Source: Psammoneis japonica
Taxonomy: Eukaryota
Reading direction: 5' to 3'
Assembly: GCA_008632985.1 (NCBI GenBank)
Contig: QPGO01000053.1
Location: 310,001 to 374,000, forward strand
DNA length: 64,000 bases
The notes beneath the pieces are model-generated. The model saw only the letters and a program-made list of their open reading frames with translations. It did no database searches and was not told the origin of the DNA. The position numbers and the translations under genes are program-made. Positions 24,235 to 46,500 of this stretch are shown piece after piece (positions within the stretch are counted from its first letter, which is position 1; the number at the start of each line of letters is the position of its first letter).

Positions 24235-24591
24235 TATAACATACCAGTTGCAGATTTTACTGTTTGGTGTCAGCAGCACCTATTTTGGCTTGGACGCGTA
24301 GGAGTAGGACTATGGAGCGACGGTCAACAACGCATTTTTCGATACGCTCATTGCTTCCAGCTTCAAACCACGCACTCGAGCCACGCCGACATTTCTGGCA
24401 TTCGCGCGCGAAATTCTAGTACATAATATATATTCAATTTGTATAAACTTATACCGAATCATTACTAAAGCTACTGTAGAAATGTACATACGGCTCTCCC
24501 AGTATATTTCCACTAAATTATCAAATTTCTCCCTCCGACAACGCTTGCCGATTCTTCCAGCCCCGGCCGCAAAGAAGCAACAGCCGTCGTT

Positions 24592-27500
24592 TCAACCATC
24601 AACACGACGACGCAGCAAAGCGTATTCTACCGTCACACCGGGTCCGAAGGCAAGCACACCGAGATCATCATGGTGTCGTAGCGCGTCTTTGTCCTTCAGA
24701 ATGTCGTGTAAAACAACAAGTGTGGCTGTGCTTCCAAGGTTACCTCGCTGGAAAAAGGTGTTCTCGCACGTACGCAACGCATCATCGGGCCATCCGCGTT
24801 CAACGATAGCCTTGTGGACAGCACCTAAAATCCTGGGTCCGCCGGGGTGGACAGCCATTGCCGGTCGCTTTTCGCCGCCCACGGCGTTTTTGAAGCGATC
24901 GATGATACGACGACCGTTCCCGTTAGAGAAATACTCATAGATGGCAGCCGGGACTTCTTTCGAAAGCTTCATCTTGTAGCCTGTCGCTCGGTCAGGATGA
25001 TCTGGAATTAAGCCCAAAAGGGTCTTGGACTCAGGAATGACGTGACAACCACTCTCACGAAAGCGCCATTCGCCCTCTGGAGCAATAATGGCCGCTCCCG
25101 AGCCATCGCAGAAGAGAGACATGGCAAGAATATCCTCTCGGTCCTGTATCGTTATGTCGTGGTGCGCAGAGGGCACTTCGACCCCAACTACCAGCACACA
25201 GCGCCGTCCCGTATTCCCTTGTCCGTCGTCGAGAACATTGCTTGTGCCTTCTCGAGCTGCGGAGTTATCGGAACCTGCGCGGACAATGTCTCGAGCGGCA
25301 CGCAAACAAGTAGCGGCCGCAAAGCAACCGTTCATGTGAAGCTCCTGCTTCTGAACGTCGTGACGAAGACCCAGCTCCTTGATAAGGTGACCTGCGATTC
25401 CAGGCTCACGCCAACCAGAGGCCGTTGTGGTAATCACGTGAGTAATGTCGGAAGCATTTCCGCGATGAGCTGGATGCGGTTTGGTTGCCCAATCTTCTAG
25501 TGCTGCGCGAGCTGACGCAAGCGATGCCTTTTGTGCCACATCCCACCAGATATCTGATCGCTCCGCACTTGATAGCTCATGAGGTTTCTTCCCCTTCAAA
25601 TGGCTCAGCAAATTCTCGCTGAGCCCAGTAGACGAAGATTCCTTTGTTCCGTGATAGGCGGGTAAAGCGAGATGACGAGTTTGGATCCCAGTGCTCTTCG
25701 CCATCTTATGAGAGAACGAAATTGCGTCGTCGTCTTGACCGAAATCCTCTCTCGCAAATTGAATTGCTTTCATCATTTCATCTGTTGAAACTTGATCACC
25801 AACAAAGCCAACACCTGTTGCAGCAATGTACGCTTCTGGTCTTGACGGCGTAGGGGGCTTGAGCATCGATGCAGCAAGAAATCCGCCAGCCGCAAGGGCT
25901 GCAATGGTCTCCAGACTCCTCGTATCTATCGGTAAACCGTTTTGATGGATCAGTTTTGCCATGACTGCGCCTATAGCTGTACCGGATAGAGCAAGAACTT
26001 GGTGGTTGGTAGGAGAAAGGAGTTGCCCAGCGGGGACAATTTGCTTGACACGATTCCACCCATTTGCCAAAGCTGAAGAAGATGGCGTTTTCAACTCTTT
26101 GGGCTCGAGGCGTCCTATAATATCCGACACCGTGATATGTTCATCCATCAACCACGTCACCGGGAAAGCCTCGGGTTCAAGCGAAAGATTTTCGCACAAC
26201 GCGGTGTGAAGTTCGACTGCTTTCATTGAAGATAGGCCCAACTTTGTCAGCTTATCAGCAGGATCGACTGAGAAGCCAAGCGTGTCTTGGAATGTTTTAT
26301 AAACGACAGCGACATCGAATGCTGCAGCAGAAGTCTTTTTTAATGGCTGATCACGACTCCAGACCAAGATGGTATCCTTCGTTGACCACTGGTTTGAGCG
26401 TGATTTCCTTTGCGTTTCGACGCGCTTGAGCTTGCCGGACGTGGTTTTCGGAATTGTGTGGCTCTGCAGAATGCAAACGTAGCCAAGAGCAACGTCACAG
26501 TTGCTTGAGACCATGCTGCAAAGCTCTTTGGCTGTCGGAGCATCGTAAGAAGTTTTTCCTTTTCGAATCTCAAGCACGAGGCCGACATTGTCTTCCTCGT
26601 TCTGAAAGGCGACAATACATCCAGGGCGTACGGTCTCTGGATATGCCTTTTCGACGGCCCGCTCGATATCAACAGGGAAAACATTGCGTCCATTCAGGAT
26701 AATGACCTCTTTCGAGCGTCCCGTAACGTAGATGTTGTCGTCGACCACCTTTCCTAGGTCGCCAGTCGAAAGCCAATCCCCATCTTCGTCTTGTAACTTG
26801 TTTCGAAACGTTTCGTTGGTAAGCTCTGGCTTGTTCCAGTATCCGTCTGCTACAAGGTATGGGGCGCGGATCCATATCTCACCAATTGTTCCGTCTGCAA
26901 CAGCCTTCGGATTCCCGCTTGTTGAATCTACAACTCGGAGTGCTGCTGGACTGTGAATGGAGGTCGTGCCGTCCACAGGGACACTAGCAACAAGGTTGTC
27001 GTTCACGGTATATTTAGCCCATCCAGCGGCAACACCGAGCTCTGCCATTCCGTAACCAACCCTTGAGATGAAAGAGAAAGCGCCAAGAAAAATGAGATTT
27101 TTGATCGGAAGGAAGAGCGCAAAAAAAAAAGGTTTGAACGTACCGTAGGTATTCTGGTTTGACGCCGAGGACTTCTTTCGCTTGCTCCATCACGGTGGGA
27201 TCGACTGGCTCTGCTGCGTTGATGAGTGTTCTGATCGAAGTCCACTTTTCGTAGTGCTTTCCGCTTTGCTGTAGACGCTTGACCAAGAGACCGTAGGAGA
27301 AATTCGGCGCCAGAGTAGAATGGGCCTTGTACTTGACAACAGCTTCATGCCACAAAAGAGGATTTTGGATGAAATCGATTGGGGAAAAGCTAATGCCGTG
27401 GAACCCAGAGTAGATGGCAGTCATGAAGTATCCCAATAGTCCCATGTCGTGATACTGAGGCAACCATGACACACCGACCTTGGGTTCATCTGGTGAATGA

Positions 27501-28435
27501 AGATCCCCGACGACCATGCAGTTGTGAACGTTGTGAATCAGAGAGCGATGAGAGATGATAACTCCCTTCGGCGATCCTGTAGAGCCCGATGTGTACTGAA
27601 TAAAGGCCGTGCTTTCTTGAGTTGGTAGGCTCTCCTCGTCCACATTGGCGGTCCCGGAGCTCCTGTCGGTCGCGATCCATTTTACCTGAACAAAGCGAAA
27701 ACAAAAGAATGAGTTTCAAATGCGGCTCACAAAAAATGCGTTGTACGATTTTTGCAATGCACCTACACCAAGTCCAGCGCTACCGAATAGTCGAAATCCT
27801 AGATAGAGCTTGAACTTTGTCGTCGTTAAGGCAAAATTTGCTCCGGCATCGTTCACTTGATTTTGGAAGGCTTCCAAATCAGACGCCTTGGCGGGATTGG
27901 GAGGATAAACGCTGCAGGCAATGACCCCTGCCCGCATGCACCCTACAATGCCTGCCAAGAACTCGAGTCCAAATGGGTACGCAATCATGACACGATCGCC
28001 TTGCTGGACTCCATTGGATCGAAGCAAGCTAACGACACCTGTCGACTGCTGCCATAGATCGATGTAGGTCAAATGCTGAGATTCGTTTCCTTTCTCGTCG
28101 AGCCACGTCAAGATGAGACGATTTGGCTGTTTTTCAACGTGAGTCTTGAGGACAGAGACCAACGTGTCGTTCTCCCCCGGAGCGGTCGGTCTTGAATTCG
28201 AAGTCCTCGAGTGACTTTCCTTATCGCTGCTCAGCTCTGGTACTAACATGATAACGTCTCTCGTTGTGACGTTTTCAAAACCGCCACTCTTGTTTGCACT
28301 GTTGTCGGCGGCCGTGAGAGCGTCGGTTGGTGGAGCGCCGTCGCGTGGAGGAGTCGGTGGCGTCGCATTGGATGTTGCGGAAGAAGCTGGAGATAGCGGC
28401 GGCGATAGCCCCGCGTCAATAATGTCGTTGATCAT
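24592..28435 (-). CDS. Fatty acyl-AMP ligase - acyl carrier protein - type III polyketide synthase fusion (~1226 aa)
   Basis: Exons 28435-27767, 27685-27144 and 27061-24592 (81- and 82-bp GT-AG introns, total 3681 nt). FAAL motifs FIQYTSGSTGSPKGV, SWLPQYHDMGL, GYGMAE, TGDLG, GRSKE and PKTTSGK. ACP LGLSSMKAVEL. Type III KS triad MNGC, HPGG and GNLGS, plus LFCDG and AFGPG. Confidence 0.92.
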
Positions 28436-29297
28436 TTTTCAAAATCCAACCGTCAAATCAAAATGACAGCGCGGAGAAACGGCTTTAGAGTCGTCGGAAG
28501 AATGAAAGGCTTGCAGAGGAAATGAGAATGCACGGTGTCTCAACAACACGAACGTTGTCTTGGAACAAGCTGTAAGATGTCTTTATCAAGTGAAAGTCGT
28601 AACAAGTTGTTCTTGTGTCGCTTGACAGTTCTGAAAATTATGTTGTGTTTGGCGGTTTGCTTTGTGCGGCATCCCAAGTTTGGTTTTGGTCGCGGAAGAA
28701 GAAGTGACAGAAAGACGGATGGACGCTCGTGACTGAATACGAATCATTCGAATGCCTCCATTCCCGAAACCTGTTTATCCAACTCGCCACGAAAGATTTT
28801 ACGGGGGCTCATATGACTATATTAACTATATGACATTTAAAATATATGTATTGTTGCGTTCGGTCATTCTCTAAGATATCTTTACTGATTTTATATTAAG
28901 ATATGTAGGTGTTTATATTGATCGAAACCCATACAAATCCGCCGTTCAACGGACGAATCTAACTGTCGCCAACCTGTCGCCACTCCGCGAGGCCACGCAC
29001 AGCAAATTCAACCTTGGACCTTGAGATCGCCGCGTTGGCACTGTTGGCAAGATCGGTTCATTCCCGGCGGTGCTTGTTGTGGTACGACTGTACATCTCGT
29101 GTCGACTTTGCTGCAACGTTAGACCTTAGAATCACTGACAAGAGACCTAGTGAGCTATAGAGAAAACTGAGCTGTTGAGTTGTTCCTACTTGACGAGGAA
29201 ACTACAACTTACGCAGCCACACAAAAACTATACACAACCCAGGTTCAGTTTTGAGAGAAAGCCCCTCCTATTCATTATGCATACTTTCAACCTTATC

Positions 29298-31189
29298 ATG
29301 ACGAGGCTTCTGCTTGCCGCGGTACTTTTTGTATCTGCCATGGCGCAGACGCCAAGTGTGTCTCCATCAATGATGTCGGAGATACCTACCGCTTCACCGA
29401 CTGTTGCTGAATCGGAGAGTCCCACTGATGCGCCTGATACCGATCAACCTACAGTGACTCCCGAGGAACCGAGTAAGTCTCCTACTGATGCCCCTACGAT
29501 CGCGCCTTCGAGTACCCCTACGGTCGCCGCTACTCAAGCTACCACCGCTCCCTCTAGTTCTCCGACCGATGCTCCGACCGGTACTCCAACCGTAGCTCCC
29601 TCTGGTTCGCCAACCGAAACACAAGAGACCGATTCCCCGACAGCCGATATCCCATTGACAGAAGTGCCTAGCGTTTCTCCAACAATCGCCCCATCTGCGG
29701 AGGACACCACCCCTTCAGCAAGTCCGACGGAGACTGCAACAGTGTCCTCGGCACCAACAGCGGAGGTTCCGGAGCCAACTGTCTCACCAACTGGAGTGCC
29801 TACGAGCATGCCGTCGGTTGCTTCTCAAGTCCCATCCATGATGCCCAGCAGCAATGGTACTAGTAGTGGGCCTCCAACCACCACTAGTCCACCAGTCACT
29901 AGTCCTCCAACCACTGCACCACCAACGCCCCCGGTCATAACAGACAGTATTTCTGGATTGAGAATGGGTTTGGTGGGTCTCGTTGAACAGTTCTCCACTT
30001 CAGACTCGGAGCTATGGCAGAATGCAACCAAGGAGTACTTTGAGGGGTTTTACAATGATCGTCGTCGTCGTTTGCTACGCACGTTGCAAGCTGTATCTGT
30101 GGAAAACGTTGAAACCACACTCAAGGTGACTGACACCCAAGTCTTGAACGACCCTGATACTTTGGAAGTTACATATGATCAGGAAGTCTCGTATGTTTCG
30201 GATAGCGGTCCAAATAGTGATTTGACAAACAAGCTGGTATCAGAACCATTTGAGGGTGCAACGAATCAACAGGTTTATGCAAGTGACCTTCGAGCAGCGG
30301 GACGGGCTGCGGGCAATGATGTCTTTGACAATTTGGTTACAACCACGGGTGTTGCACTGCCTGAGGAGTCTAGTGGAGACAGCGGATTGTCTACTGGTGC
30401 CATTATTGGAATTGCATGTGGTGGAGCCGCCGGATTGTTGTTGCTTGGTGGTGGCGCTATGTATTGGAGAAGCAGGAGGAATGCTGGAGGAGCGGCAGCA
30501 GGCTCTGGGTATCTGAAGTCGGATTCGGAAGATGCTCCTCCTCAGTCGTTGTCAGGGTGAGTTTCTGCATTGCAGCGTGGATGTGTCTGTTCGAAGGCGT
30601 TATCTCAAAGTTTCTGCTTTTTTTTCCTTTTAGCGCGCGGAGCGATGAAGTTAGCACTCTTGGAGACCCAAAAACGAAATCTGGAGTGGCATCCGGCGAT
30701 GAGTTTACGGGGTATGGCGATCAAAGTGTGGCCACGGTTGATTATGACTATTCCAAGGCCTATGGAGGAGCTGGAGAATCGGTTTCTTCAGCTGGGGGTA
30801 CCTTTGGTTCCAACACACAGGGACAAGCATCCATGGCTGCAGGCATTGGTGCCGGTGCTGCGCTAGCCGGTGCGGCGGCGTATAGCGACGATGAATCCTT
30901 TGATGCACAATATCGTGGGAATCAGAGAGAAGAAGTAATTGACGTTTACGCTCCATCAGGAAAGCTAGGAGTCGTGATTGATACACCAGACGACGGCCCT
31001 CCCGTGGTCCACGCAATTAAGGATTCTTCTGTGATTGCCGATAAGTTGCAAGTGGGAGATCAGCTTGTTTCTGTGGATGATGAAGACGTTCGATCCATGA
31101 CAGCCATCAAGGTATCGAAGCTCATTTCTCGCAAGAGTGGTAACGCAACCCGGAAGCTAACTGTTATCCGCAGAGTTGCGGCTGAGTAA
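29298..31189 (+). CDS. Type I membrane protein: signal peptide, P/S/T repeats, TM helix, C-terminal PDZ domain
   Basis: Intron 30557-30633. RRRLLRTLQ RxL motif, TM GAIIGIACGGAAGLLLLGG, PDZ APSGKLGVVIDTP…LQVGDQLVSVDDEDV. Alternative ATG at 29277. Confidence 0.9.
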
Positions 31190-31499
31190 AGCTGGATTCG
31201 ATTGTGTTTCGTTCGCTCGCATTTGTGTTGTTTGTTGTGAAGCCATGGTTAAAAAGTTTCTAGATCTCGTGTTAAACTATCAGCCTATCTTGACGTAAAT
31301 GGATTTTACTCTACACAGTAGGGTCCTCTTGCTTTTAAAACGTTGGAGCTCGCTCCTTATCCGTGTAATGACGACCATTTGAGAGGGGAGAGAACTTCTT
31401 TTTTGGCGACAGCGTTGCGAATTTCGTCGAGTGGAGATTACGACGACGCCTCAAGAAGTAGTCTAACGTGCCTTTTCCCAGTCGAAAAGAGGGCAGAAA

Positions 31500-33200
31500 T
31501 CAACTTGGGTGTGCATCTTTGGTTCGTTCTACGTGCAAACCTGACTGCTGTCTCTTAGCAAGCACAACACATTCACTTCCGTCGCCAAAGAAAAGACCAC
31601 CGGTGCCATCCACTCCTTCACATGCCGACTTGAAGGTCACAAGGCATTGAAAGAACTTGTCACAACATGTTCCAATGGGTTCCTTGATGGGGCTTGGGTT
31701 TGGAGATGGCATGGGAGAAAGCATTGGGTAAACGGGCAAATCATTGTTGTCAGCACATTCGCCACCGCGTCCCTGAAAGACTCCACTTGCATCCTCACAG
31801 TTTCCAGGCATCTTGCGCTCACATGTTCCACCAGCAAGAAGGCAGCAGGCACCTTTCCGAGGACAACCTGCACTTTCACAAGTCATGTCATTGCCTTTGC
31901 ACATTCCAGGCTGCAAGGTGCAATCTTCTTCTGAGAGAAGTTTGCATGATTTGTTTGTCTCTGAGTGGCACACCACAAGCTCCTTTCTTCTCTCAATGTT
32001 TTTGAGGGGTGTCAGAGAGGGCATGGCATTGTTGCATGTTGAGTGCTCACCAAGGAAGTGAGCTCCAGCCACACCATTGCAGCTTGACTCTGTGACTTTG
32101 TCAATGCACTCTCCTTCAGGATTGCAGCATGCTCCCGGGACCAGTGGGGTGCCTGTTGGGCTGGGGGGTTGTGGGATGGTGTGGGAAAAAGTGTCGGGCA
32201 AATGCAGGTGGGCAAATCATTCTGTTCTGCAGAAGACTGCACTCTCAATGGGGGAGGCACATGCCAAGGAGGAGATGGCAAGATGTTCAGTGATGATGTG
32301 TTTTGCCCCCAGGGACTGGAGCTTGCTGCTTTGCCAATGCAGCTTGTGAAAGGAAAACTTTGTTCATTTGGGAAACCAGCCCCCTCTTTTACAACTGCAG
32401 GAGGCATTGGAGAGGGAGCAGGAAAAGGGGCAGGAGACAGCATCAGGCAGATTGATGCCCTGTTGTCACCATTGCATCCACTGCTGTGGCCCTCAAAGAC
32501 TCCATTCATGGAGCTGCACATCTCAAAAGTCTTGTGCAGCCACAAACCCCATTGGCAATGCAACAGGCTCCTTTTCTTTGACAACCTGCAAGCTGGCACA
32601 ATGTGCCATCTCCTTGGCATGCTCCCCACCCAAAGTGCAATCTGCCTTGGAATGAAGCTTGCATCTGTTGCTTCTGAAGGGCAAGCAACAAGCTCCTTCT
32701 CTGGGATGCAGCACAGGAGAGGGCACAGGAGACTCATCTGGGAGGGTGTCCGGCAAATTTGTGACAACTCATTGTCATCCACATGTTCCCTGCTCCTGTG
32801 ACCCTGAAAAACTCCACTCCTCTGGTGCATTGCCCCAATGCAGTCTTCTCAAAAGTTCTGTCAGCAAGAAGACAGCCCACAATTTTCCTGGGGCAATGTG
32901 CAGTGTCATCTCCCTTGCATCCTTCACTTTGGCTTGAGAAGTGCAGTCTTTCTCTGAGAGAATGCCACACTTGTCAGCTCCAAATGGCAAACAGCATGTG
33001 CCCTCCATGTCCAAGGGAGGTCCCACCTTGGCAATTGTGATCACACTGTGGCAGCTCACAACTTCCTGGGCAACACCTCTGCACACCTTCATGCGTTGGG
33101 AGTGTTGCTGGTGCCAGGGACTGAACAGCATGTCCCATGTCACCACCAAACTTGATCTGATGCATCTCACTCTCCTTTTCTGCAGCTTTGCACAAAAACT
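31500..33200 (-). pseudogene. Degenerate paralog of the GACC-repeat protein
   Basis: GACC/GTCC repeats with Pro-rich linkers are scattered over several frames (e.g. GACCLPFRSNRC vs intact GACCLKFGDNRC). Lies inside the TpA-depleted domain. Confidence 0.8.
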
Positions 33201-36200
33201 CCCTTGTCAGGGGCTCAAACAGCTAAAACTGGGCAAAGGAACAGTGCCATGAAGTCAACATCCCAGCAGCTGTTTGTCCATGCACTCCAGCTTTCCTTTT
33301 CACCTCCTGGCAAGTGTGTGTCTTGCCCGTGGCATTTTTTGGACAGTTTGTGAGGCAGAAGAGAGTTGCAAAAAACAATGCATGGAAGTGGGGGTCATTG
33401 CACCACAGTTTTTTGTTGCCATCAACCCACAGGGCCCACTCTCCATGGCATGTGAGGTGCTGCAAAAGAGATGTTGACAATGACAGATGAAACTCTCATG
33501 AATTTTGCACACCACACACACCATGTGCAAAATGCTGCAAGAAGGAGGGAAAGAAACAAGGGGGGGGGGGGGGGGGGAGCACAAAGGTGCTGTGCAGCTG
33601 TGAACCCCACGGCAGTGAAACAAGGTTCATTGAGCATGATTTTTGGTGCAATTTTCAGCACCAGGCATTCTTTTGTCATCCTTGCCTGCCAGCCAGAGCT
33701 TGCATTTTTTTTGGCTTGTGTTGGCAACAAGCATTCATTGTGACAAATTGACAAAAATGTTCACTTTGTGCATGTCCCTGCACACACAAAGGTTTTCATT
33801 CAATTAGAGCAGGAAATGTGGCAGGCCAAATTGGTGCTCATGGGAGACTCACCACAGGCTGTGCAGACTGTGCACCTGGAGATGTTCCACTGCATGATGG
33901 CATGCAGCACAGATGCATTGGCACAGCACCTGAGGCTGCTCAAAAACACCTGGCTGCAGGCTTGAATTTTGTGTGCAGCAGATCTGTCACACTTGGTGTT
34001 TCACACTTGAGGGGAGGAGGAGCTCCCATCAGAGAGTGCTGCTGCTCACCCTGTGACAACACTCAGCTGACTTGGACACATCTCTTTCTCCCACTGGAGC
34101 ACAGTTGCAAGTGCAATGCAAGTGTGCAACAAACACAATTGACACGCCTTTTGGGAATGCACCACATTGAGGAATGAGTGGAAACTCTCATTGACTGCAA
34201 CTGAAATTGCCAGAGAATGTGCTGCCAATCAACCAACACCAAAAATGGCTCACTGACATGGCCTGCTCTCTGGACTGTCATTGTTGTGCAATGCAAGTTT
34301 GCAAGAAATGCAGGTGGTTGGCCCTTTGAAGGCACTGCATTGGGCAAAAAGTGGAAGCTGTTTTGTTGGCTGCGTCAAAGTGTGAAATTCTTTGTTTGCT
34401 GGAGCTGCCAAAAGCCCTGGTTTTTTAAGTGCAGAACTTGTCACTTTTGTTGACATGAAAGTTGGCAAGAAAGATTTCTTGGATGATCTGCTTCTGTCCC
34501 TTCCTGGTGCTGTCATTGAAAGACAGCCTTTGCATGATGCAAAGCTTTCAACTCAAGAAAACAAAAAAGTTAAAGCTCAAGCTGTGAGTGGCTGCAATCT
34601 CACACAGAAAAACTCTGATCTAAAAAATCACATGGCTTGACTTTGGCAGAGCATTGTGCATGACAGCCAAAGGAACAGTGAGTTTGAGATCATTGCAGCT
34701 CAAGGTTTGATTGTCAAGTTTGCCAGTTGAAATGAGCCCAGGGCCACTTTCATGGCAAAGAACTGGTGGGAGAAGAGCAGCAGTTGTGGCTTTGCTCAAT
34801 TGAAGTTTCAACTCAAGGTGTGTGACTTTTGTCACACTCAATCCACAGTGCGTGCATTGAGTGAGAAGTTTTGATGCAAACCATGATTTTTTCTTTGCCC
34901 AATGTGTTGTGCTCTCTTGTTTCTTGCAGCAAAGACACACAAGTGACATGCAAAGGAGGGGAGGGGGAACAAGCAAGCCAACTGGCAGGCAAGGAAAGTG
35001 TGTGTTGTGAGCTCATTGTTTTCACACTCAGAAGGTGAACTCCTCCAAGAGTTTTCTGTGCTTTTTGCTGGACCCGGCTTCTGTGTGGACATGACAAACC
35101 ACCTTGTTGGGCTCAACAAAGCTCAGCAGCAGACTCACCTTCAACACCACCAACTCCAAGAGCTTGAGAGTTTGCACAGCTTTCAGGCTTTGCTTTTGGA
35201 GGGTTCAAAGACTCCGAGAACAAATGTCCTCTGTCACAAGGCCACAGCAACAAGTCATGCTGTGCAGGTCAAGGAAAGCTTTTAGGGCCAGCCTGGCATC
35301 AATGCCTTTTGAGCACCACCTCTTGGTTGGTGTTTTGTTGTGGCCCCTGGCTCAACAAAGCTTGTCAATGGGGGCAACATGCTTCAGGAGCAGCAGCATC
35401 AATGAAGTGCAGCTGGTGGGTTGTTTGCAAGGTGTGCTTGAAGGGGCCAAAGCTTCTGGCACACATGTGCTCCAAGTTTGATGTGTGCCCTTGCTGCGGC
35501 ACATGGTGTTGGAGCAACTGAAGCTGATGGCAGAAGCAAGAATGACAGCTTTGTTGCTTGCCAACCCTGCAGCCTTTCCAAGTGGTCAAAAAGGTGTGCA
35601 CTGCCTGTCTTCAATGATGGCCCATTGTCACAGCTCTCTCTCAAATGTCAGCACAGCTTGCACACAGATGCAAGAAGCACAAGTGGCAGTTAGAGCAATG
35701 TCAGGCAGCAACAGTGCACAAAGCAGCAGTGCATCAGCTTGCTGCTCTGGAGCAGTGCCGGCACAACACAAGATGGAGGCTCTTGTTTTGGGTGCAGCAA
35801 GGCACTTTGCTTGTCAAGGACCATCAAAGCACTTTGCAAAAGCCCAAGGATTGAGGCTTTGTGCTGCAATTTTTGCAAAGGTTGCTGTGCCAGAAGGAGC
35901 AATGTCACCTTCTTGAGCAATGGAAGGGCTGTTGGCAGCTTGGTCAGAGGTGCTGCTGGAGGGAGCTGCAGCTGTTGCAGTTTCAGCCAGCATGAGTTGG
36001 GGGGCAAAGTGGCACCCTTGGAGAAGACTCTTTTTGGCAAAGTCAAAGTGCAGTTTTTTATGACTTGTGTTGGTGGGAAACTTCAAATTTTGGTCTTGTG
36101 ACACATCAAATCTCATTGCCATTTTTGCCTGCAGATTTTTTTTTATTTTGGGAAGCTGAGATTTCATGTTTGCTCACATTTTCAATTTGTGTGTGATGGT

Positions 36201-39200
36201 CTTTTTAATTTTAATTTCAAAAGAGACAATGTTTGTTTTGGAACAAACAAACTTCTCACCCAACATCTCTGGGCAAAGCTTGAGTGGCAACAGCATTTTG
36301 CAATCTTGTGCTCACTGCTGTGTGCTTTAATTGACCAGACACAACACCATTTTGTGACATGAACTTGTTCTTGCTGCTCAATTTCCATTGGCCAGCAGCA
36401 CAACTCCATGCAACAAATGCTTGCATTGCCATGAACAACTTGTGTCATCAACTGTCTCAAAGCTCCACAGCCAGATCAAGCTGTCCAGCGGCCCAAGTGC
36501 TGAGCTGGATGATGGCCACTTTGTAAAGACCACCCAAGACCTCCAGAGTCTCATGATGGACAAAAAACCTTCTGCAATGCCAAGAATGCTGGCTGCAAAG
36601 TCATGCTCCTGTTCAACTTTGTGCAGCCCAGGATCTTGAGACTGAGTGCAAAAATTGCCTTTTGAGGCCACTGGCAAATGAAGCTTGTGACAACTTCAAG
36701 ATGGGTGACATTGTGTGTTCCATCTGAGCTCCTAACAAAGCCACAAAATCACAGAGAATTGTGTCTCAAAATGACTGAAGTCAAGCTCAGACAAACATGG
36801 ACAACAACAGCAAATGTTCCAGTGGATGTTGCAGCAGCTTTCAAAAAAAACTTGTGGTTCTGCCATCAGATTCCTGCCCTCCTGGCAAGGACTGCACCAA
36901 GCTTGTGGCCAAAGCCCTGCATCTTGTCAAGATCATGATGCAGATGGGCTGTGGCTGCCCTGGCTGTAAAATGGGCTCTGCCATTGTGTGCAAAGTGCCC
37001 AGTGGAGTTGCCTTCTCTGAGCTCTTCAATCAACAAGCTTCGTCATTTGGGGGCCATGCAAGCAGCCGAAGGGAAAGTGTCATCTCTGCAACCCTGCCAA
37101 ATCTCCCAAGAGCTCTGCTCATGCTGACTGCTGTCCTGCCAAGACAAGTGGTGGGCCAGCTGCAGACAAAAAACTGGCCTGCCTTGTCCCCCCAAGCTCC
37201 CTTGAGAGCAGCCATGCTCCCAATGGTTGCAACTTGACCACCAAGCATGTGCTGTTGTGGGCATTGCCAGGAACACTGACATCCAATGCTGAACATTTTG
37301 AGTTTGCTTGCCCTGCATGCAAGAACCAAGCTGGCACAAAAATGGTCAAAAGAAGAAAGACCAAGACACTGGCAACTCCAACAAGGACACTCGCCCTCCA
37401 AGAAAGAGAAACCTTCCAAGCCTGTCTGGCATTTTGCCAACATTTTTTGTGACATGCTGACAAGAACAAATGCATGGTCTAGAAATGACTTGACAAGTGT
37501 GCCAACAGACAAAGAAAGTGGCAAAACTGGGACAAGCCAAAAGGGCCTTCAGCTGCTGAGTGGGCTGGTGCAAGCACCCTGCCAAGTCCAGCACAGGTGC
37601 TTTGACCAATTTTTCCATTGCGGGCCCTTTTTCAGGTGCTCCATTTGGGCTGCAGCAGTGCATGATCCTGGCCACTGCTTCAGCAAGCAAACTCCTGCAG
37701 ATCTGAGGCACTGAGCCCAAGCCCATCCCTTTCACAATGTCAGCTCCTTCTTTGACACACAGGGCTGCAAAAAGATGCCCTTGGACAATTGCTCAAGAAG
37801 CCAGCTTGCTGTTTTGACTCAGCCAAAAAGTTTCTGCCCCCAGAGCTTTTTTTTCTTTGACAAAAGTTGTTCCCCATGCTTCTTGGCTCTGTTGACACTG
37901 CTCCCTGGCAGGATCCTGGCCAGGCTGCACCTTCAAAATCTGCAGACAGAGTTGCTGCCCCCACCCAAGCCCCTCCCCTTGAGGCAGCACCCCTTGCCAC
38001 TGCTCCCCAAGCTCTGCTGAGTCTTGTGCATGGCCAGCACATGATGGGGAAGCACAAAATGAAGCTCCCACTTCTGTGCTTCCTGCACATCTGTTTGCCC
38101 CAATTCAGGTGGCTTGCCCTCCTTCCGTGAACCCTGCAACCATCATTGTTCTGCAATGTTGACACATCTTGCGCACAACAATCATCTGGATGTTGCCTGT
38201 GCTGCTGCCCATCAAGTCATCAGCAGGCTCTCATTTGCTCCCAAGGTCTCTCTCTCTCTCTTGCAATTGCCACTTGGAATGTTTTTTGTCATTTGAACCC
38301 ATGGACCAACATCTCAGCTGTCATGAAAGTGTGCATTTTGAGTTGCTGCTCCCCAGCATTGAAGACTGTGATGCACAACCCAACTTCTCTGTCAAGTCAC
38401 CAAGGGCACACCACTTCTTGTGCAGGACATCTGGCCATTGCATGGCCATCCAAGCTGTGGCCTCTTTTTGCACTTTCTGTGATGGAAGCCAAGCGTGTTG
38501 CTCTCTCTGAAGCAGCACACAGTCTCATTTCACTGTGCATGATTTTCAGCAAAGTTGGCGCACGCACTTCTTGTTCCTGCAGCTCAGCCATCAGAAAACA
38601 AGATCATTTCCCACACACCAACAGGCCCCCTTTCCCCCATGACAATGATGATGGGGCCAAATCTCAGCCCATTGTCTGTGCCAACTCACCTTCATCTGTT
38701 GTGCACGAGCGCGATGCTGCTTGTCTTCAACTTGCTTGTGAGCAAAAAACAAATGCCAGAGCCAAGCACACAGGCACTCCACACTGCTGGCTCTGTGCTG
38801 AAGCAGAGGCTTTGGCCCAACTGTCTCTGCTGCAAAGCCAGCAGACCAGCTCAATGAGGGACATGGGTTGGCAACTGCGCACCCCATTTTGGTTGAGAGG
38901 AAGAGTCGTGAGTCTGGCTTGCAGATGGGCAACTGCACTTGAAGTGTCGCACCAGCCAAATTGTCATGCACAATGCAAAGAGGAATCTCCTCACACTTTG
39001 AGTCATTGCAGTGCCTTGTTGTCTTCTGCTGCATCTGTCATCTGCTGTGCCACACTGCACAACCTCAAGAGGCACCTTGTCTTCCACATGAGTGCTGCAC
39101 AACCCGAGTGTCAAGAGATTCTCTCCCCCTGGGTTTCACATGGAGGTTTTTTCTTCTCCACAAAAGCACCAGCATGTGGCAAAGTGGAGGCCATAAGATG

Positions 39201-39290
39201 ATTCAGCTTTTCTCTTGCTGCACTGGCTGGAGTGTGCGACTGTGTTTCGGTTGAACACGAAGCGACAAGAAAATCCCACGAGCGGGCGGC
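31540..39290. other. TpA- and CpG-depleted hypermutated domain 1
   Basis: About 20 TA by eye in ~7.7 kb: one in 31741-33180 and none seen in ~37490-39190. Track ORFs are nearly Tyr-free and rich in Cys/His/Gln. Confidence 0.9.
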
Positions 39291-39594
39291 GGTAGCGTTC
39301 TTTGTCACGTCTGTGCGTTGGGAAGGATGCAGATAGAACGACGTCTTCATACACAAGACGAAGATCGAAAGCTGCTACGCAACAGTTACGACAGACTATG
39401 TCAATGCTGTTGGACATATTGTGCACAATACATGAACGCTTTAGTTACTGCTATATCCAAACTCCATAGACGGCATCTTCTTCAAAGCCAGCTCGGACAG
39501 CAGCGGGAGACTGAACACAGATGCACTTGCAGCAATAGAATATCGACTTCAACGCTTCGCCGTCTTCTCTTGCGGCAGGTTATTCGCTACTCTC

Positions 39595-41695
39595 CTAACA
39601 GGAAATGCCTTTGTCACTGCAAGTTGTGCCGCGACCCTTGAAGTTTCCTTTTATTCTGTCGCATGCCGACTTTTGGATCTTAAGACAATTTCCATTCTTG
39701 CAGCAGGCTCCATTCCTTGGACAAATTTCATTCTCACACGTCGTGGCATCTCCTCGATAATCCCCAGCACATTTCGACGCTGTACGGAGTTCGCATCTGT
39801 TATCTCCGAACTTCAAACAGCAAGCTCCCTTATTGGGGTCCACTGGCTGTGGAGGAGGAGGGGGAGTGGGAGGTGCCGTTTGACGCTTGTCACTCCCAGG
39901 GCATTCAATACTCTCACAACTCGTTCCAAAGCCCTGAAATTTGCCACTGAGCCGATCAATGCACCTGTTTCTTTTCTGATTAGGGACACAAATTCCTGAC
40001 TCTCGGCAGCATCCGCCCCTCTCACTGCAGCGGGCTGATACGCAGGTCTGAAACAGCAAAACGCAGGAGCGAGTGGCGTTTAGGATCAGAATCATTCAAA
40101 CAATATCATATTCGACAATTCTTACCTTTCCAGCCTGGAATATTCCATCCAACTTTTCACACGAGCCCTCCGTGACATCTTTGCATTCTCTCCTGTTAAC
40201 AACAAGCGATCATTACAAGACGTTCCGCTTAAGAAGCACTTAAAGGAATAAACAAAATGATGTATGCAGATAATCGATACGTACTTGTACTTCAAGCAGC
40301 ATGCTCCAGGTGGGTCGCAAATTCCAGCGCTGCACTCGGTGCCAAAACCCTTGAAGTCACCTGAAGATCATTCAATAAACGAGAAACAAAGTTTGAGAAC
40401 ATAAGTAGTGACACAGAGCCGCATCCTTCTGTGGTTATGAAAGCACTCACCTCCGCACCACTTCTTCTTGATTTTATTGCACACTTTCTTTCCTTTCACA
40501 GTCGTGCAGCAAGCACCTTTCAGTGGGCATGTCTTTTCATCACAGGTTGTGCCCTACAGACAATATTAGAAAGATACACGACACAGAGGTAAATTGAGAT
40601 GAAAGACTTCCAAATGAAGCCAGACTCACTGCCGGTAAAACAACGACGGCAACTTACAGGTCCTAGGTAGACGCCCGTCTTACAGAATTTTGGCTTGATA
40701 ACGTCACAGTTTCCGCCCTCTAAGTCACAGCAGGCACCGCGAGGATTGCATTTCTTATTGGCAGGCTGGGGAACAAGAGCACGACGAACATCAGTTCACA
40801 GACGGTTTCAAAAACGAAGAATGAAATCATATTGTGGGAGGGACTAACTTACACATTCGGTTTTGGAACCCGTGAAAAAACCTCCCTTGTCATCGCAGAC
40901 CTTCCTTCTTAGCACAGCGCAAGATGCATCAAGCAAGCAGCAGGCGCCTTCTTGGCAATCGCCACACGTCGTACCCTCGCCCGCGAAATCGCCTAAATAT
41001 TTGAAATGGACACGAGTGTTATCAGAGGGATGCAAACGAGACGTAGTCACTAAAACATTACTCATTACTGACGTACCTTTCTTTTTGTCACACTCAAACT
41101 TCCTCGCTAGGAAGCATTGTCCGTCTGGATCGGGATCGCAACATCCCCCATAAGCTTCTGGGCATCTGTCGGCACGACAGGTGATTCCATCTCCAAGATA
41201 TGCGCCGCCTATAGAATCGCAACTGCTTTCGTCGAGCCACGTGCAAACCGGTGGATTTGCAGATGGTTGACAACACCCTCCCTTAGGAGGGTCAGTATTC
41301 TGAAACATGTAAAGATAAACAGAAGCAATGAGAATGCAAAAACAGTGAACGAAAACAGTTGAAGCGTTTGGATTCGCATACCGTCAGGATCCGCTGAGAC
41401 CCAGCCTTTGATAGAAGAAGTGAAATTACAGAGTAGAAAATGTGAGAACAGGAAATAAAATCATGCTATCATCGTGATAGTTGCTAATTCACTCTTACGT
41501 ACGTTGGAAGAGGCACCGTCCTTTGGTCCGTACTCCGCCGACACGTCTGAGGAAGAACACAGCGTAGGAAAGCAAATTCGTGAGCCATTCCTGTCTACTC
41601 GAAACAAGTGGCGCCAACATTAAACGTTTCATACCTGTCGCCTCGCAAAGAGCAAACGCAACCAAGAGCAAAAGACCGTTGTAATTGAATTTCAT
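39595..41695 (-). CDS. Secreted cysteine-rich protein with tandem G(A/G)CC repeats, 10 exons
   Basis: Signal peptide MKFNYNGLLLLVAFALCEA. Nine GT-AG introns splice into one frame (…ASSN|AGSQRILT|NTDPPKGGCC…). Repeats GACC-x5-8-C-x7-C-…G.(Y/F).G.GTTC. Stop TAG at 39595. Confidence 0.85.
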
Positions 41696-43026
41696 CTTTG
41701 TCTTCGACTCGATACTTGTTACTAATCTTACGAAATTCTTTTTTGTGAGATGGATTCCGGGGCGCCACGATCAACACAAGATTGTGACGCGAATTGTCGT
41801 AGTGCGGTTGTGCCGAGAGAGAGTCTTTTGGTGGTCACGAACCACCTCATATATTAAATGATATTAGTCCCTATGCACTTGCGTAGCTTTTCTTCTTTTT
41901 GATTAATGACTGTTCTTTTAAAAATGATTTGTCGCTATCAGAAGTCATAGTCATATGATCAATTATAGACATCCATTACATAAGTCATAGATTTTATCGG
42001 ATTTCAAAGCAGTATGGTGTAGTCATACTATAAATGTTGCTCCACATTTATACTCTAGCAGGTCATCATCCGGCTTACTTAGTTGCTAGCTTGCAGAGTT
42101 TTCTTCGAGACTTTTCGTTATTGGTCAGATCACTCATCCATGTCCTTTCGGCGCAGAATCCTGTGGTTTTTGTACTGGAAATAAAAACAATTATTGCTAG
42201 TGACCGAATGACCATGGCATCTGATGCGACGACTCATTCGACGAGCTCGTGTGCACGCTCGGGAAACGCACACGCCCACACAAGTGGAATCATGGATTCC
42301 TCCTCCTTGATTTGTTTCCATGCAAGGCTTCCTCAATGCACTCCGCTTCAAACAGTGTGCTCTCCAGGATTTGGGTGCAACAGGAAGGTGTCTCTTGATT
42401 GGGAGCTGAAGTGCTGAGCTGCTGTGGTCTGTGGTGTGACAGCGAGGTGGATGACCGGATGGCGTGTCCATCGACGACAACTTTGGGCCCATCAAAGGGG
42501 CGAAAAAGGTGGCATGAATCACAGATCATTGCCCCCCGCACTGAGCCATTGTGTGCACATCTTCATTCATTGGGTGGACCCCTTGCTGATTAAATGACAC
42601 GGCCACTTGTTGGAATCTCACCTTTTTTGTTTGTTTGCACGGTGCCCGCGTTTGTCCTTCATCTGATTGTTGCCCACAGACACTGTGGTGTTTTTTTTGT
42701 GTCCCCACTTCAACCAAACAATTGACGCACCTGACTGGCACATGTTTGTGGATGTTCCAGCATTTTCATTGTGTGCTCTCTTTCTTCATTTGCACTCAGC
42801 GACATTTCCAATTTCCAGTCGCAAGCTGGGCATTTGATGTGTTCGTGTTGTTTGATGACACAACACATTTTGGTGGCAGCATGAATGGCAGTGTGATCAT
42901 GAACACATGCTGTGCATTGAGTGAACTGAATCACGTTGAAAACACTTTGTCTTTCTTGTGATCATTTCACGGCAATTTTGCCATGTCAATTTTTGCTCAC
43001 TTCATTTTTTTCCGAAATCGACACAG

Positions 43027-43286
43027 GGCCTGTTCCAGCTCCAGGTGCTCCTCGCGGGTTCGATTCCCATCATTTGGAAATTTGTGCATTTGGCACAATT
43101 GACTTTTTCCAAATCCGTTTTTTGCCAAATCAAAGGGCAAGTGCACACTTTACATGTGTTTTCGGGTGTGCACTCACCTTTCGATTTTCGAAACGATCAA
43201 AATTGAAGGAGTTGATTGCGCTAAACTGCGCAGAAAATCGGCCTCTCGAGTGATGAAAAGCAGAGCACCTGGAGCTGGAGCAGGCC
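43027..43286. mobile_element. MITE-like element, 260 bp with 24-bp terminal inverted repeats
   Basis: ggcctgttccagctccaggtgctc (43027-43050) vs gagcacctggagctggagcaggcc (43263-43286), 23/24 match. No clear TSD. Confidence 0.75.
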
Positions 43287-43479
43287 ATTGGGGAATTCAC
43301 GCAGCCTCACTCAGCCTCCATGGCCCTTTTTCCTTGTGACCATGTGTCTGATTGCATCACCTCCACCATCCCACATTGCATGAGACAAGTCCGTTGATGC
43401 CGTTGTCTCCGCTGATGATTGTTCCAAAGACTGCAATAGCAGCGTTTGTCTTGACACTTCTTCACGTGATGACACACAT

Positions 43480-44100
43480 CAATGTCAGCCTTTGTTGTGC
43501 ATCAGTGTTTTTCTGTTGACTTGTTTCCACAACTCACTCCAAAACAAAGCAACAAATGATGCCAGGAGCAAGCAATCTTCGTGAGCTTTCCTCTTCACAA
43601 TGAGGGTGCAAAACAGCCAGAGTTCAAGCGGACATCGTTGGCACATGTCAGCTCCTGTCTGGTCTGCATGCAAATCAGTTGGAAGAAGGAGGTCCTTCTC
43701 TGGATTGAAATCTTCAGGGAGATTGTTGCATGTGTTGAAGCACCATTTGATGCAAACTGTTTCTCCCAGGTCACAGTCATCCACGGGGACAAACTTTCGG
43801 CGCTGTTCTGCATCGATTGGTTGACATTTAGACTGTGATGGTCATCAAAAAGGGAGTGGGCAAGCAAGTCCTTTGACATGTCCTGCATTTGAAAACAGGT
43901 GGCTTGGCACCCAGAAATGATGCGTGTGTCTGGTTTTGGCATGCACACCTTCATGCAGATGCTTTTCAGCAACTGTTTGCACTGAAGAGCCTTGCATGCA
44001 TTGAACTTCTTTTCTTGTGGAGATGTCATGGCAGAGTGAGCAGCGAATCATAAAATCCTTGAGTGGCACAGGAATTGTCACACAGTGTGATCAGCTCAAG
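43480..44100 (-). mobile_element. Plavaka-like transposase relic
   Basis: KDLLAHSLF…KWCFNTCNN…LLLPTDLHADQTGADMCQRCPLELWLF reads as WY..TY…LLP..LYAD.TG.D.YQRYPLE after restoring Tyr. Resemblance to Plavaka-type transposases is from memory only. Confidence 0.5.
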
Positions 44101-45086
44101 AGAAGCTCCCTCAGCCAACGTGAAGCTGCAACCAAGCAGAAGGGATGACTGTTCCTTGCCAACACAATCAGGGGGTCAGCCGGCGAAACTTGCTCTTCTT
44201 CATCAATGCCGCAATTGTCGGCAGAGTTGGTGCTGGGAAGCATCTCAAAAGGACACAGCTCATCCTCATCGTCTCCATCTGAGTGAGATCCATCACAGTG
44301 CTTGTGGAGTCATTGTCTTCTTCAATGGAGGTGCTGTTCTCAAAATCCAAAACAGCACCGCTGAACTCTGCATCGCATCCCGCCGTGGCACCACATGACA
44401 AAAGGGAGGAAACAGAGGAAGCACCTGTTGGGGAGCCGATGTCGGATCTGTCGGTGGGGTTTCTGGAGGTGCCCTCAGAAGTTGGGCAATGTTGGCAGGA
44501 GGACATCAACAAGGACTCCTCATCGTGGCCTTGACGAATGAGCAACACAGTGGCTTGGGACAGCATGCCCAAATCACTGGTGGCAACGTTGACACAACCA
44601 ACTCAGCAAGGCTGGTGCCAGCAATGGCAGAAACAAACCATGTGCAAGGATCTGTTTGCAGGGTGGGGATTGCCAAGACAGACAAAAACAAAGGGAGAGT
44701 CATTGGAAGTGAGTGTGAACTGATTGATTTTAAAATCAGATTGTTGTGCGGGTGTGAGAGCTGATTGAGAGTGCACGTGCCTTGCAGCCAGACAGACATG
44801 AATGTTGGAATGATGGGAAATGGAATTTGAAAAAACAGGGATCCAAACATTCGGTCATGGCCAAATGCAATGTTTTTGAAACTCAGGCAAGCAAACTCAA
44901 GTGTTGCATTGGCGAACATGTGATGACAAACAAAATCAATGGCCACACAATGTTTGGGTCACAACATTTGCAAATGCAGGGAAATCCAGGTTGCAGCGGC
45001 AAATGGCTGGGTGCCAATGTTCACATGACTGGCGCTGGGAGGAGCACTGACAAAACAAACCACTCAGAAAACAACAACACAAAGTC

Positions 45087-46500
45087 ATGGCAACCACGGT
45101 GCAGAGACTTGTCAATCCAGCCAAGTTGATGGACGATGACAAGAAGGTGGGCAGAGACACAGTCAAGGTGAGAAACCATGTCAAAGAAAAGGTGTTTCTC
45201 AGCATCATGTTTGTCTTTGATGCAAGGCAGCTGGAGGAAACCGGCATGCTGCACCAAGACTGCACCCAGAATTGCAGACTGACACTGATGGATGGAATGC
45301 TGGCAGACCTGCCAGAAGTGGAGCAAAAAAAAAAACACCTGCATTTCCTGTGGATGAAAATGAAACAAAACAGGTTGTGCCAGGCTTGGCCAGCAACAAA
45401 GCAATCCAATGCATGTCAGGCCAAGCAAGACAAATTTCACAGCAAGCGCTGTTGCCAAGGCTTGTCGTGGATGAGGGGATGACAAACTGATGTCAGGAAC
45501 ATGTTGTTGCTGACACAACACAGTGCTTTGTGCATGCTGTGATGAACACAATTGCATCTTGCCTTCACCAGAATGACTCCAGGAGCAATTGTTGAATCCA
45601 ACATCATTGCAGACAGTGACTGTTTGTTGCAGCCGGTCATGGGAAATGCTTGTTGGAAGAAGAGCCTCTCCAACAACACAAGGTTGGGCATGTTGCATGC
45701 TGAGGCATTCACCCACATGCTCCTGAAGAACAATTTTGTAGCGTGGCACATGGAGCACACAAGAGCAACAACAAGGACAGTCGTTTGTGATGTCAGACCA
45801 TGGTGCGGAGCTTGATGACCAAGGAAACCCCACCAGAAGGCAAGACTTGTGTGGGACGACAATGCCAGATGTCAGCGTTGCTGAGCCAAAGGATGCAAAC
45901 GGATCAAGCTCATTTGCCATTTTGGAAGGAGACCCCAAAGAGCCAACAGAGCAATGTGCAGCAGAGGAAATGTTGAACAAATTCAAAGAGGCACAGGAGA
46001 AGTCCCTCGAGAGCTGCAACGAATGCATCAAGAAGGTGAGAATGGAGCAAACAACACAGGAGCAATTGGTCATTTTGATGGAGGTCACGAACAAGCTGGA
46101 GAGCAACAAGAACCTGCCTGACAGGGAACGTGGCACTGAGAAAAGAAAGTGCTTAAGATGCCTGGAGCACTTCACAGCAGGGAACTCCAGGAATGGAGTG
46201 GAAGAAGGTGCACCGAGGACATGATGAAAGACACCCAGGAAGTGCAAAGGATGGTCCCTGAGGGCAAACAAGTTCTTTGAGAAACTGGTGAGCGAAATCA
46301 AACAAGATGTTGTGAGCAAACAACTGGGACAATGGGAGGATTTGCACAGGAAGTTTGTGGCAGGGTGCAATGAGAGAAAGTGGAGGATGACAATGATGAG
46401 TCAGGGGACAAGGGCAGCCACATGGTGAACTGCACCAAGATGTGCAAGCTGCAGTTGATGCCAGTTTGGTGGATGACACACATAAGCAGCATTGACGTCA
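45087..46500 (+). mobile_element. Degenerate transposon accessory ORF
   Basis: Broken frames with VRNHVKEKVF, EAFTHMLLKNNFVAW and GWSLRANKFFEKL fragments, divergent from the Plavaka-like relic. Assignment is by recollection only. Confidence 0.35.

Follow-up and report, generated by a model that had tools for sequence, protein, structure and literature searches.

Programmed adenine hypermutation of genomic DNA is known from one 2026 preprint on one alga, B. natans (Mettrop et al., 2026, bioRxiv, 10.64898/2026.01.13.699255). According to its main text, mutation-accumulation lines carried 231 new mutations in two integrated viral regions, of which 230 were A>G or T>C and all 230 lay at the dinucleotide TpA. 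The rate in these regions is given as ~6e-7 per site per generation, the mutation rate being raised ~1000-fold, and 124 clusters of 1-kb windows poor in TpA and rich in CpA+TpG were described (10.64898/2026.01.13.699255). The process is described there on DNA of foreign origin (virus, virophage, transposon), and its authors propose an ADAT2-like adenine deaminase, a candidate enzyme. The main text mentions no flanking context, tri- or tetranucleotide or CpG, and a motif logo or Table S2 may show part of this. A literature search returned no report of TpA-specific DNA hypermutation beyond this preprint. Here we analyze a 64,000-nucleotide stretch of Psammoneis japonica DNA (contig QPGO01000053.1 of assembly GCA_008632985.1, positions 310,001 to 374,000, forward strand), hereafter the window, in which two domains have lost almost all of their TpA and the few survivors follow a graded flanking-base rule.

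The first ~31 kb of the window consists of gene-dense eukaryotic DNA at ~48% GC with long uninterrupted open reading frames (ORFs). Beyond it the following parts can be delimited, with observed/expected ratios abbreviated as o/e and positions counted from the first letter of the window:

~31560-39190: domain 1, TpA-erased, single copy; 18 TpA left; TpA o/e 0.037, CpG o/e 0.086, CpA + TpG o/e 1.8
~31860-38490: core of domain 1 poor in CpG, its ends lying ~300-700 bp within the TpA-poor limits
39194-42198: unmutated island separating both domains; TpA o/e 0.62, CpG o/e 0.96
~42200-64000: domain 2, TpA-erased, continuing off the window end; 91 TpA left
42250-50400, 50400-56600 and 56600-64000: parts of domain 2 by CpG o/e, 0.37, 0.64 and 0.41 respectively

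At the flanking density, ~303 TpA would be expected in domain 1 and ~863 in domain 2. The TpA o/e is 0.58 in the flanks, against 0.037 in domain 1 and 0.042-0.098 in the three parts of domain 2, and the count per 500 bases drops from 11-34 (4 in one bin, 15501-16000) to 0-7. The borders at 31560, 39190 and 42200 are each sharp to within ~100 bp. In domain 1, TpA is gone from 31560 and back at 39194, and CpG is dense to 31626, partly so to 31858, sparse to 38494 and dense again from 39237.

In a public sequencing run (X1), all sampled words of 30501-40500 are present. Two X1 contigs built from exact 31-letter words, at a depth of ~60-65, span 31001-42631 with 0 differences, X1 possibly being the source of the assembly. 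Accurate reads thus show domain 1 to be TpA-free and present in one copy, and no variant at a share of at least 5% was seen in it in this one sample. The part of domain 2 at 43000-51000 is repetitive in X1, with a depth of up to 14434 versus ~70, and its copies differ by 1013 transitions versus 385 transversions.

Within the otherwise normal DNA, a mini-patch of ~400 bp at 15537-15937 is poor in TpA and CpG and rich in CA/TG. It holds 4 TpA at its edges and middle (15535, 15763, 15782, 15937), and per 200 bp it has 3-7 CpG and 36-43 CA+TG, versus ~26 of the latter elsewhere. It may be a miniature erased domain.

The window shares several traits with B. natans as its main text presents them (10.64898/2026.01.13.699255). 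The only change is TpA to TpG/CpA, read here from the end state, and discrete regions with TpA depletion and CpA+TpG enrichment lie beside normally evolving DNA. Most of the affected sequence in B. natans lacks annotation, apart from traces of transposons or viruses, and much the same is seen here. Repeats are not required, a 186-kb region there being single copy like domain 1 here. The two cases differ in extent, with near-saturation here (TpA o/e 0.04-0.10) versus 0.45 in the B. natans viral region. In contrast to those viral regions, no viral gene was found here by Pfam on 231 ORFs or by comparison of the predicted proteins P0003-P0005 with viral contigs. Relative to the preprint's main text, the rule on the first and second following bases, the co-depletion of CpG and the nested borders are added. 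By analogy, the signature in the window matches TpA hypermutation of the B. natans kind, described once before, of which it appears to be the end state; the flank rule is an addition.

Fungal repeat-induced point mutation (RIP) resembles this process in being genome-defence-like and in riddling chosen DNA with single-dinucleotide transitions that kill genes. RIP, however, changes C to T mainly at CpA and creates TpA, whereas here TpA is destroyed and CpA/TpG created. It also acts on duplicated DNA, whereas domain 1 is single copy and a nearby paralogue of 64-75% similarity is untouched. With TpA o/e at 0.04-0.10, CpA o/e at 1.6-1.8 and domain 1 single copy, RIP was rejected. Decay of methylated CpG has a counterpart in the same domains, where CpG becomes TpG/CpA, most strongly in domain 1 (o/e 0.086), but it cannot remove TpA, and it is slower and separable (CpG o/e 0.64 at TpA o/e 0.098 in 50400-56600).

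The products of the loss can be read from composition. The o/e of CpA and TpG in the domains is 1.6-1.8, and GC content is steady (0.47-0.51 in the domains versus 0.48 outside). Among the A/T steps only TA falls, AT secondarily, and the AA/TT o/e is raised (1.25-1.31 versus 1.15 outside). CpG, which the original prediction does not mention, is likewise depleted (o/e 0.086 in domain 1, 0.37-0.64 in domain 2), so that the CA/TG excess draws on two processes. In every flanking context the pyrimidine-purine (YR) steps TA, CG, TG and CA roughly keep their summed density, TA and CG vanishing as TG+CA rise, which indicates that TA and CG were turned into TG or CA in place. GC-biased gene conversion and a uniform A/T>G/C bias were rejected on the steady GC content, the raised AA/TT and the fall of TA alone. 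The original prediction from sequence had argued for a mutational process that reads its flanks over GC-biased conversion, and this is borne out by the reappearance of TA and CG as TG and CA in the same flanks.

The direction of change was followed in three sets of genes:

53056-55896, (+): degenerate gene for a ~1000-residue protein of no known family, in two frames, domain 2
48924-49429 and 49913-50415, (+): two paralogous copies, 80% identity, domain 2
20646-21659, (-), and 23260-24279, (-): two tandem PALP-family (threonine/serine dehydratase-like) genes, 68.5% DNA identity, normal DNA

In the degenerate gene, codons were called conserved when a residue was common to at least half of two or more aligned homologues. 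At the 21 Tyr-conserved codons the window has His 9 times, Cys 5 times, Phe 4 times, other residues 3 times and Tyr 0 times, so that 14 of the 21 are now CAY or TGY (Y being a pyrimidine). Other residues in the same gene are kept at 35-86% (Phe 19/29, Trp 12/14, Gly 38/52, Ile 13/37). From TAY, a single transition leads to either His (CAY) or Cys (TGY), and these codons are the clearest proof of direction. In the paralogue pair of domain 2, 64 transitions stand against 20 transversions, 44 of the 64 transitions lie inside YR steps, and 15 of the 27 double differences are swaps between CA and TG. The control pair of PALP genes has 1 such swap among 85 double differences. A CA/TG swap indicates that the same ancestral TA (or CG) was converted independently, and in opposite ways, in each copy. 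No strand bias was observed: among the 1-kb bins of the domains only 60001-61000 (z 2.15) departs from near-equal counts of TG and CA, and by runs tests there are no strand-coordinated clusters of TG versus CA (z -1.6 to +1.3).

A further comparison is offered by a family of Cys-rich modules (G-x-C-C ... C ... C ... G-x-F/Y-x-G-x-x-x-C), which occurs on both sides of the right border of domain 1:

31536-33008, (-): decayed Cys-rich modules with in-frame TGA, found by a module scan and by the DNA repeats D1, D4, D6 and D16
39574-41287, (-), within the island: intact modules of the same family

The erased and intact sets are paralogous and lie ~6.5 kb apart, the untouched island paralogue being 64-75% similar and 400 bp past the domain border. 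At 10 aligned positions where the island has CG, domain 1 has TG in 6, CA in 2 and CG in 0. Judged by eye, the aromatic position of the module holds F or Y in the island; its counterpart in domain 1 holds F or H.

The sequence context of the surviving TpA was then compared with that in normal DNA. The original prediction had counted ~19 TA sites by eye in 31700-39200, all but a CTAG near 37480 reading TAA on at least one strand. Exactly 19 TpA are present there (GTAA three times, TTAC once, CTAA three times, TTAG three times, TTAA five times, TTAT twice, CTAG at 37480 and ATAA at 39194), 18 of which read TAA or TTA, and ATAT, GTAC, ATAC and GTAT were likewise correctly given as absent from domain 1. 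The same bias had been noted in domain 2 with GTAC exceptions; these are real (TA at 52348, 52497 and 54257), and others lie at 63119, 54777 (ATAC) and 56503 (GTAT). Contexts lacking both a 5' T and a 3' A (VTAB) make up 821 of 1387 TpA (59%) in normal DNA, versus 1 of 18 survivors in domain 1 (Fisher p 3.1e-6) and 20 of 91 in domain 2 (3.7e-12).

Survival was expressed as observed TpA relative to the flanking density, for the 109 survivors of both domains, the expected context frequencies being those of flanking gene-dense DNA rather than of the domains' own ancestral sequence:

TTAA: 0.46
CTAA/TTAG: 0.31
CTAG: 0.115
GTAA/TTAC: 0.096
ATAA/TTAT: 0.087
GTAC: 0.055
ATAG/CTAT: 0.046
CTAC/GTAG: 0.018
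ATAC/GTAT: 0.011
ATAT: 0 of 105 expected

This is the comparison of depleted with genic DNA that the original prediction had called for, and the gradient from TTAA to ATAT contradicts survival in proportion to background composition. A single rate of loss shared by all contexts is rejected (likelihood ratio chi2 123, 3 degrees of freedom), and a uniform A/T to G/C bias does not agree with the raised AA/TT. An additive per-strand model, in which the loss on each strand is set by the base 3' of its A, fits the data (Pearson chi2 11.8, 6 degrees of freedom), with a fitted log-loss of 0.32 for A, 1.03 for G, 2.01 for C and 2.24 for T. Adding a term for the second base (+2) improves the model (chi2 97.9, 3 degrees of freedom). 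The share of A among survivors versus normal DNA is 52% versus 23% at +1, 61% versus 27% at +2 and 39% versus 27% at +3. Read as half-sites, TAAA survives at 0.41, TAGA at 0.22, TACA at 0.11, TAAB at 0.09-0.15, TAGT at 0.023, and TATC and TACT at ~0.005-0.006. The hexamer TTTAAA, which is TAAA on both strands, shows no loss, with 6 surviving versus ~5 expected. Sites with TAA and without TAAA survive at 0.06 when TAA is on one strand and 0.087 when it is on both, compared with 0.03 for sites without any TAA. Thus A at +1 and A at +2 each protect, and strong protection needs both.

The context rule is therefore a rate difference of ~6-7 fold per strand and a graded four-base preference. The word strict, used in the original prediction, does not hold. 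Its proposal that TA with neither a 5' T nor a 3' A is preferred stands as far as the VTAB deficit goes and is incomplete in that a lone A/T neighbour protects little and the A at +2 is needed. For the three classes of site with a single A/T flank, the product in excess is that altered at the pair beside the other flank: the excess per kb is 9.3 for TTGC versus 3.3 for GTGA, 6.9 for TTGT versus 3.0 for ATGA, and 3.0 for TTGG versus 1.0 for CTGA, which indicates that each flank acts on the adjacent base pair. This product analysis is noisy, since mutations also hit the flanks and host DNA served as the baseline. A single rule, seen from either strand, underlies both "preceded by T" and "followed by A".

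Near-saturation implies that only the slowest sites are left. Sensitive contexts account for 35% of survivors in 50400-56600, the least decayed part, versus 6% in domain 1, the most decayed, and the survivors thus narrow to slow contexts over time. Survivors also cluster in A/T-rich patches, such as 36059-36328, 48837-48942 and 62043-62673. Three survivors (44051, 51883, 58153) lie within the same 9 letters, TCA-TA-AAAT, with no wider similarity; this recurrence may be fortuitous or may mark a short word that is functional or refractory.

Known adenine deaminases resemble the rule in part. Natural TadA edits the A of U-A-C-G in an anticodon loop, and ADAR accepts a 5' A too and favours a 3' G. 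Like TadA and ADAT2-3, which edit an A preceded by U/T, the process here removes only TpA, with TAC among its best contexts; in contrast to them, TAT is as good as TAC, the +2 base matters, and the natural enzymes act on RNA loops. The likeness to ADAR lies in the conversion of A to I, read as G, and in the preferred 5' U. It differs in that AA is not depleted here, a 3' G is disfavoured, and genomic DNA is changed in situ with sharp borders. ADAR-type editing was rejected on two grounds: AA shows no depletion, and a 3' G has half the fitted loss of a 3' C or T. Among engineered enzymes, one TadA-8e variant has been described, in the passage available, as preferring A in a YAC context (PMC13109818). 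The comparison with TadA and polymerase eta spectra called for in the original prediction thus comes out divided: the 5' T and TAC are TadA-like, and the WA signature of the polymerase is missing, since AA is not depleted.

To account for these data, we consider probable a domain-targeted, TpA-specific deamination of silenced DNA with a preference for T-A-notA-notA. Both domains would be silenced, decaying DNA, and among their contents are an inverted-end transposon, repeats in high copy, pseudogenes and the dead paralogue of a gene nearby. A process targeted to such domains would convert nearly every TpA to TpG or CpA by transition, and a slower decay of CpG to TpG/CpA would run in the same stretches. 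Conversion of the A:T pair in a TpA would be ~6-7 times slower when its A is followed by A, which is the same as its T being preceded by T. A second A at +2 would protect about equally again, leaving TTTAAA practically immune and TAC or TAT followed by a non-A erased. Surviving TpA would then be the kinetically slowest substrates rather than sites protected by function. An asymmetric motif 5'-T-A-(not A)-(not A), applied independently on each strand, would be the mark of a base-reading enzyme. The likeliest agent would be a DNA adenine deaminase that yields inosine, which is then copied as G; the chromatin state of the domain would recruit it, and its action would spread ~300-400 bp past the core. 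Of all this, the sequence demonstrates the TpA loss with its direction and limits, the context rule and the balance between strands, and the enzyme class and the role of chromatin are inferred.

The putative recruitment by chromatin draws on the borders, one of which lies beside a candidate transposon:

42567-48921: ~6.35-kb element with ~174-bp terminal inverted repeats, arms at 42567-42740 and 48750-48921

Its arms align with a local score of 42, versus 9.9 +/- 1.5 for shuffles (z 22), and 0 of 200 shuffles reach that score. TpA loss starts at 42200, ~370 bp outside the left end of this element, and overshoots the CpG-poor core of domain 1 by ~300 bp. An erasure reaching 300-400 bp past the core or the transposon end argues for recruitment by chromatin rather than by sequence homology. 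As to timing, 50400-56600 is the part with both the most CpG (o/e 0.64) and the most TpA (o/e 0.098) left. These values, with the largest share of sensitive contexts in the same part, indicate that TpA erasure is faster than CpG decay.

Other explanations of the survivors were weighed against a base-reading deaminase. It is unlikely, on the evidence here, that DNA shape or chromatin protects them rather than base reading by an enzyme; on this view TpA within A/T tracts would sit in DNA that is rigid, narrow in its groove or free of nucleosomes, and the mutator would fail to open it or gain access. Protection does grow with the length of the A run, A being enriched at +1, +2 and still at +3 (39% versus 27%), and survivors cluster in A/T-rich patches. 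Yet a lone A at +2 protects after G or C (TAGA 0.22 and TACA 0.11 versus TAGT 0.023 and TACT ~0.006), and these are not A-tracts; the intermediate effect of G at +1 is a better fit to graded base reading than to tract geometry. The two readings are compatible and not exclusive. We regard as quite improbable a thymine-first route, in which a hydroxylase of the JBP/TET kind would make 5-hydroxymethyluracil at 5'-(not T)-T-A in silenced domains, to be miscopied or misrepaired as C. By sequence alone, A>G on one strand is inseparable from T>C on the other, and the context rule can just as well be put as T not preceded by T. In some protists 5-hydroxymethyluracil is reportedly enriched at TpA, and a literature search on hydroxymethyluracil, dinoflagellates and TpA returned nothing to confirm this. 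To our knowledge, no pathway turns a modified T into C at near-100% yield, which speaks against the route. So does the sole experimental system with this signature, where the changes are read in the main text as adenine deamination, the ADAT2-like candidate there coming from sequence and predicted structure rather than an assay (10.64898/2026.01.13.699255). That survivors are kept by selection, be it as TAA or TAG stop codons, as poly(A) signals or as promoter elements of the TATA kind, is very unlikely. The contexts absent from domain 1 (ATAT, ATAC, GTAT, GTAC) are exactly those unable to form TAA or TAG, and several survivors are AATAAA-like (48841, 48860, 54427, 58857). TAA and TAG, however, close no longer frames than TGA (median 21 versus 23 codons; Mann-Whitney p 0.53), and TAG-forming contexts (CTAC/GTAG 0.018, ATAG/CTAT 0.046) survive no better than the non-stop GTAC (0.055). 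Coding capacity is moreover destroyed, with no Pfam match in domain 1, in-frame TGA and all conserved Tyr lost.

There is very little probability that the present TpA arose anew from the abundant CA/TG by ordinary mutation, their contexts mirroring those of CA/TG. At the survivors 46155, 46991 and 50030 (TTAA/TTAC) most other repeat copies in X1 carry G, where G>A is possible, and some survivors may be new or polymorphic. But the contexts predicted from CA/TG are rejected (chi2 112, 9 degrees of freedom), TTAA being predicted at 7% versus 24% observed and CTAA/TTAG at 10.5% versus 30%, and the bias of any new sites would still demand a mutator that removes the other contexts. Error-prone patch repair of the polymerase eta type (WA motif), drawn to methylated DNA by T:G mismatches, would explain why CpG decay and TpA loss share domains and why TpA loss overshoots the CpG-poor core like a repair tract. 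The WA motif of somatic hypermutation includes AA, however, and AA/TT is raised here rather than depleted (o/e 1.25-1.31 versus 1.15). In addition, all 230 B. natans transitions reported in the preprint's main text fall at TpA (10.64898/2026.01.13.699255), and patch repair is accordingly highly improbable. Finally, a sequencing or assembly artefact, such as base-calling errors at modified bases, could affect both self-complementary YR steps, as is seen, since these might be modified motifs. This explanation is hardly credible given the X1 contigs at ~60-65x that match domain 1 with 0 differences (though X1 may be the source of the assembly), the sharp borders, paralogous copies that differ in outcome at the same site, and homologues that show the matching change of Tyr to His or Cys.

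Several points nevertheless weigh against TpA-specific deamination with the proposed motif. The context fit comes from 109 survivors only, the fitted value for TAAA is slightly negative, and GTAC exceeds the additive model (4 observed versus 1.3 fitted). A-tracts may already have been more frequent in the domains at the outset, the baseline being neighbouring gene-dense DNA. TGCA and TGTG are sinks of adjacent YR steps, and some ratios of excess to pool are above 1. Because TpA is self-complementary, deamination of A is indistinguishable from a change on the paired T. No deaminase family was found among the Pfam-scanned ORFs of the 64-kb window. Domain 1, present in one copy, contains a paralogue of the gene next to it, so that foreign DNA would be a possible target at most in domain 2, where the inverted-repeat element and the high-copy repeats are the candidates for foreign origin. 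Methylation of CpG in the domains is presumed from sequence, and 5-methylcytosine is thus a putative cause of the CpG loss. For B. natans, the literature on 5-methylcytosine yielded one giant-virus paper, whose available passages hold no host methylation data.

More broadly, and only tentatively, a chromatin-guided DNA adenine deaminase with the four-base footprint T-A-notA-notA might serve as a genome defence in more than one eukaryotic lineage. Such a system would mark whole domains, single-copy host-like DNA included, overshoot the silenced core by a few hundred bases and work faster than methyl-CpG decay. If so, the TpA-free scar with TAAA survivors would be diagnostic for finding new hosts and the enzyme. 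The target motif is quantitative (+1 and +2 bases, TTTAAA immune), and any candidate deaminase must match it in vitro. The window also gives an order of events, in which TpA erasure outruns CpG decay and extends 300-400 bp further, and an instance of two adjacent paralogues with opposite fates, one erased and its neighbour left intact. Work on base editing would also take an interest in a natural editor of DNA adenines whose short motif is defined.

Little coding identity was recovered from domain 1. Pfam detected no family in any of 17 read-through frames and no match in 17 standard ORFs, no terminal repeats scored above shuffles, and the Cys-rich module family is without a Pfam match. In 31400-64000, PF00891 was the sole clear Pfam match among 231 stop-to-stop ORFs of at least 75 residues. 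No viral family was among the matches, and three weak zinc-finger-like or PDZ-like matches were not used. No relatives of the predicted proteins P0003, P0004 and P0005 were found in viral contigs. The other features of domain 2 are as follows:

56515-56883, (-): O-methyltransferase pseudogene, C-terminal part (PF00891, E 3.5e-13, profile 122-209 of 210)
51042-52262, (+): P0003, 407-residue open frame with acidic repeats

Upstream to ~57240, the O-methyltransferase frame contains TGA and TAA stops. Its read-through has one relative at 41% identity, in which a Tyr aligns with a Cys in the window, in line with the direction of change seen in the degenerate gene. P0005, the product of the degenerate gene at 53056-55896, has 28 representative homologues by phmmer, which tblastn places on 53056-55896; 5 of 7 homologues compared with Pfam are without a family and 2 of 7 have a weak PDZ_6 match below the Pfam cut-off. 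P0003 has no Pfam match and 0 homologues, and one stretch of it resembles a WRKY/FLYWCH-type zinc finger (W-x-C ... H-N-H) by eye only. Short tandem duplications occur at 50449-50568 (60-bp unit, 92% identity) and 51285-51487 (71 bp at 132-bp spacing, 86%), with differences that are mainly CA/CG and TG/CG, as expected of CpG decay after duplication.

The gene-dense part of the window, scanned with Pfam, has the following features besides the PALP genes, for which the nearest Protein Atlas clusters are bacterial:

first 31 kb: Sad1/UNC (SUN) domain protein, from the Pfam scan of ORFs
first 31 kb: CCB2/CCB4 plastid cytochrome-assembly protein; HECT ligase
7531-8346, (-): ORF with an RmuC-family domain (E 3.8e-26)
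24595-28438, (-): multi-piece gene with AMP-binding, DIP2-like AMP domain, phosphopantetheine carrier and type III polyketide (chalcone/stilbene) synthase

No match was returned when the window was scanned for Rfam families and tRNAs. The SUN-domain protein is without a relative above 39% identity in a collection of 5.8 billion protein clusters, which implies that the proteome of this organism is absent from that collection. In the Protein Atlas, the clusters compared for lineage were bacterial or mixed only and gave no information on it. The RmuC family is mainly annotated in bacteria and is found here inside the eukaryotic gene-dense part. The fusion of AMP-ligase, carrier and type III polyketide synthase at 24595-28438 (-) is uncommon in eukaryotes.

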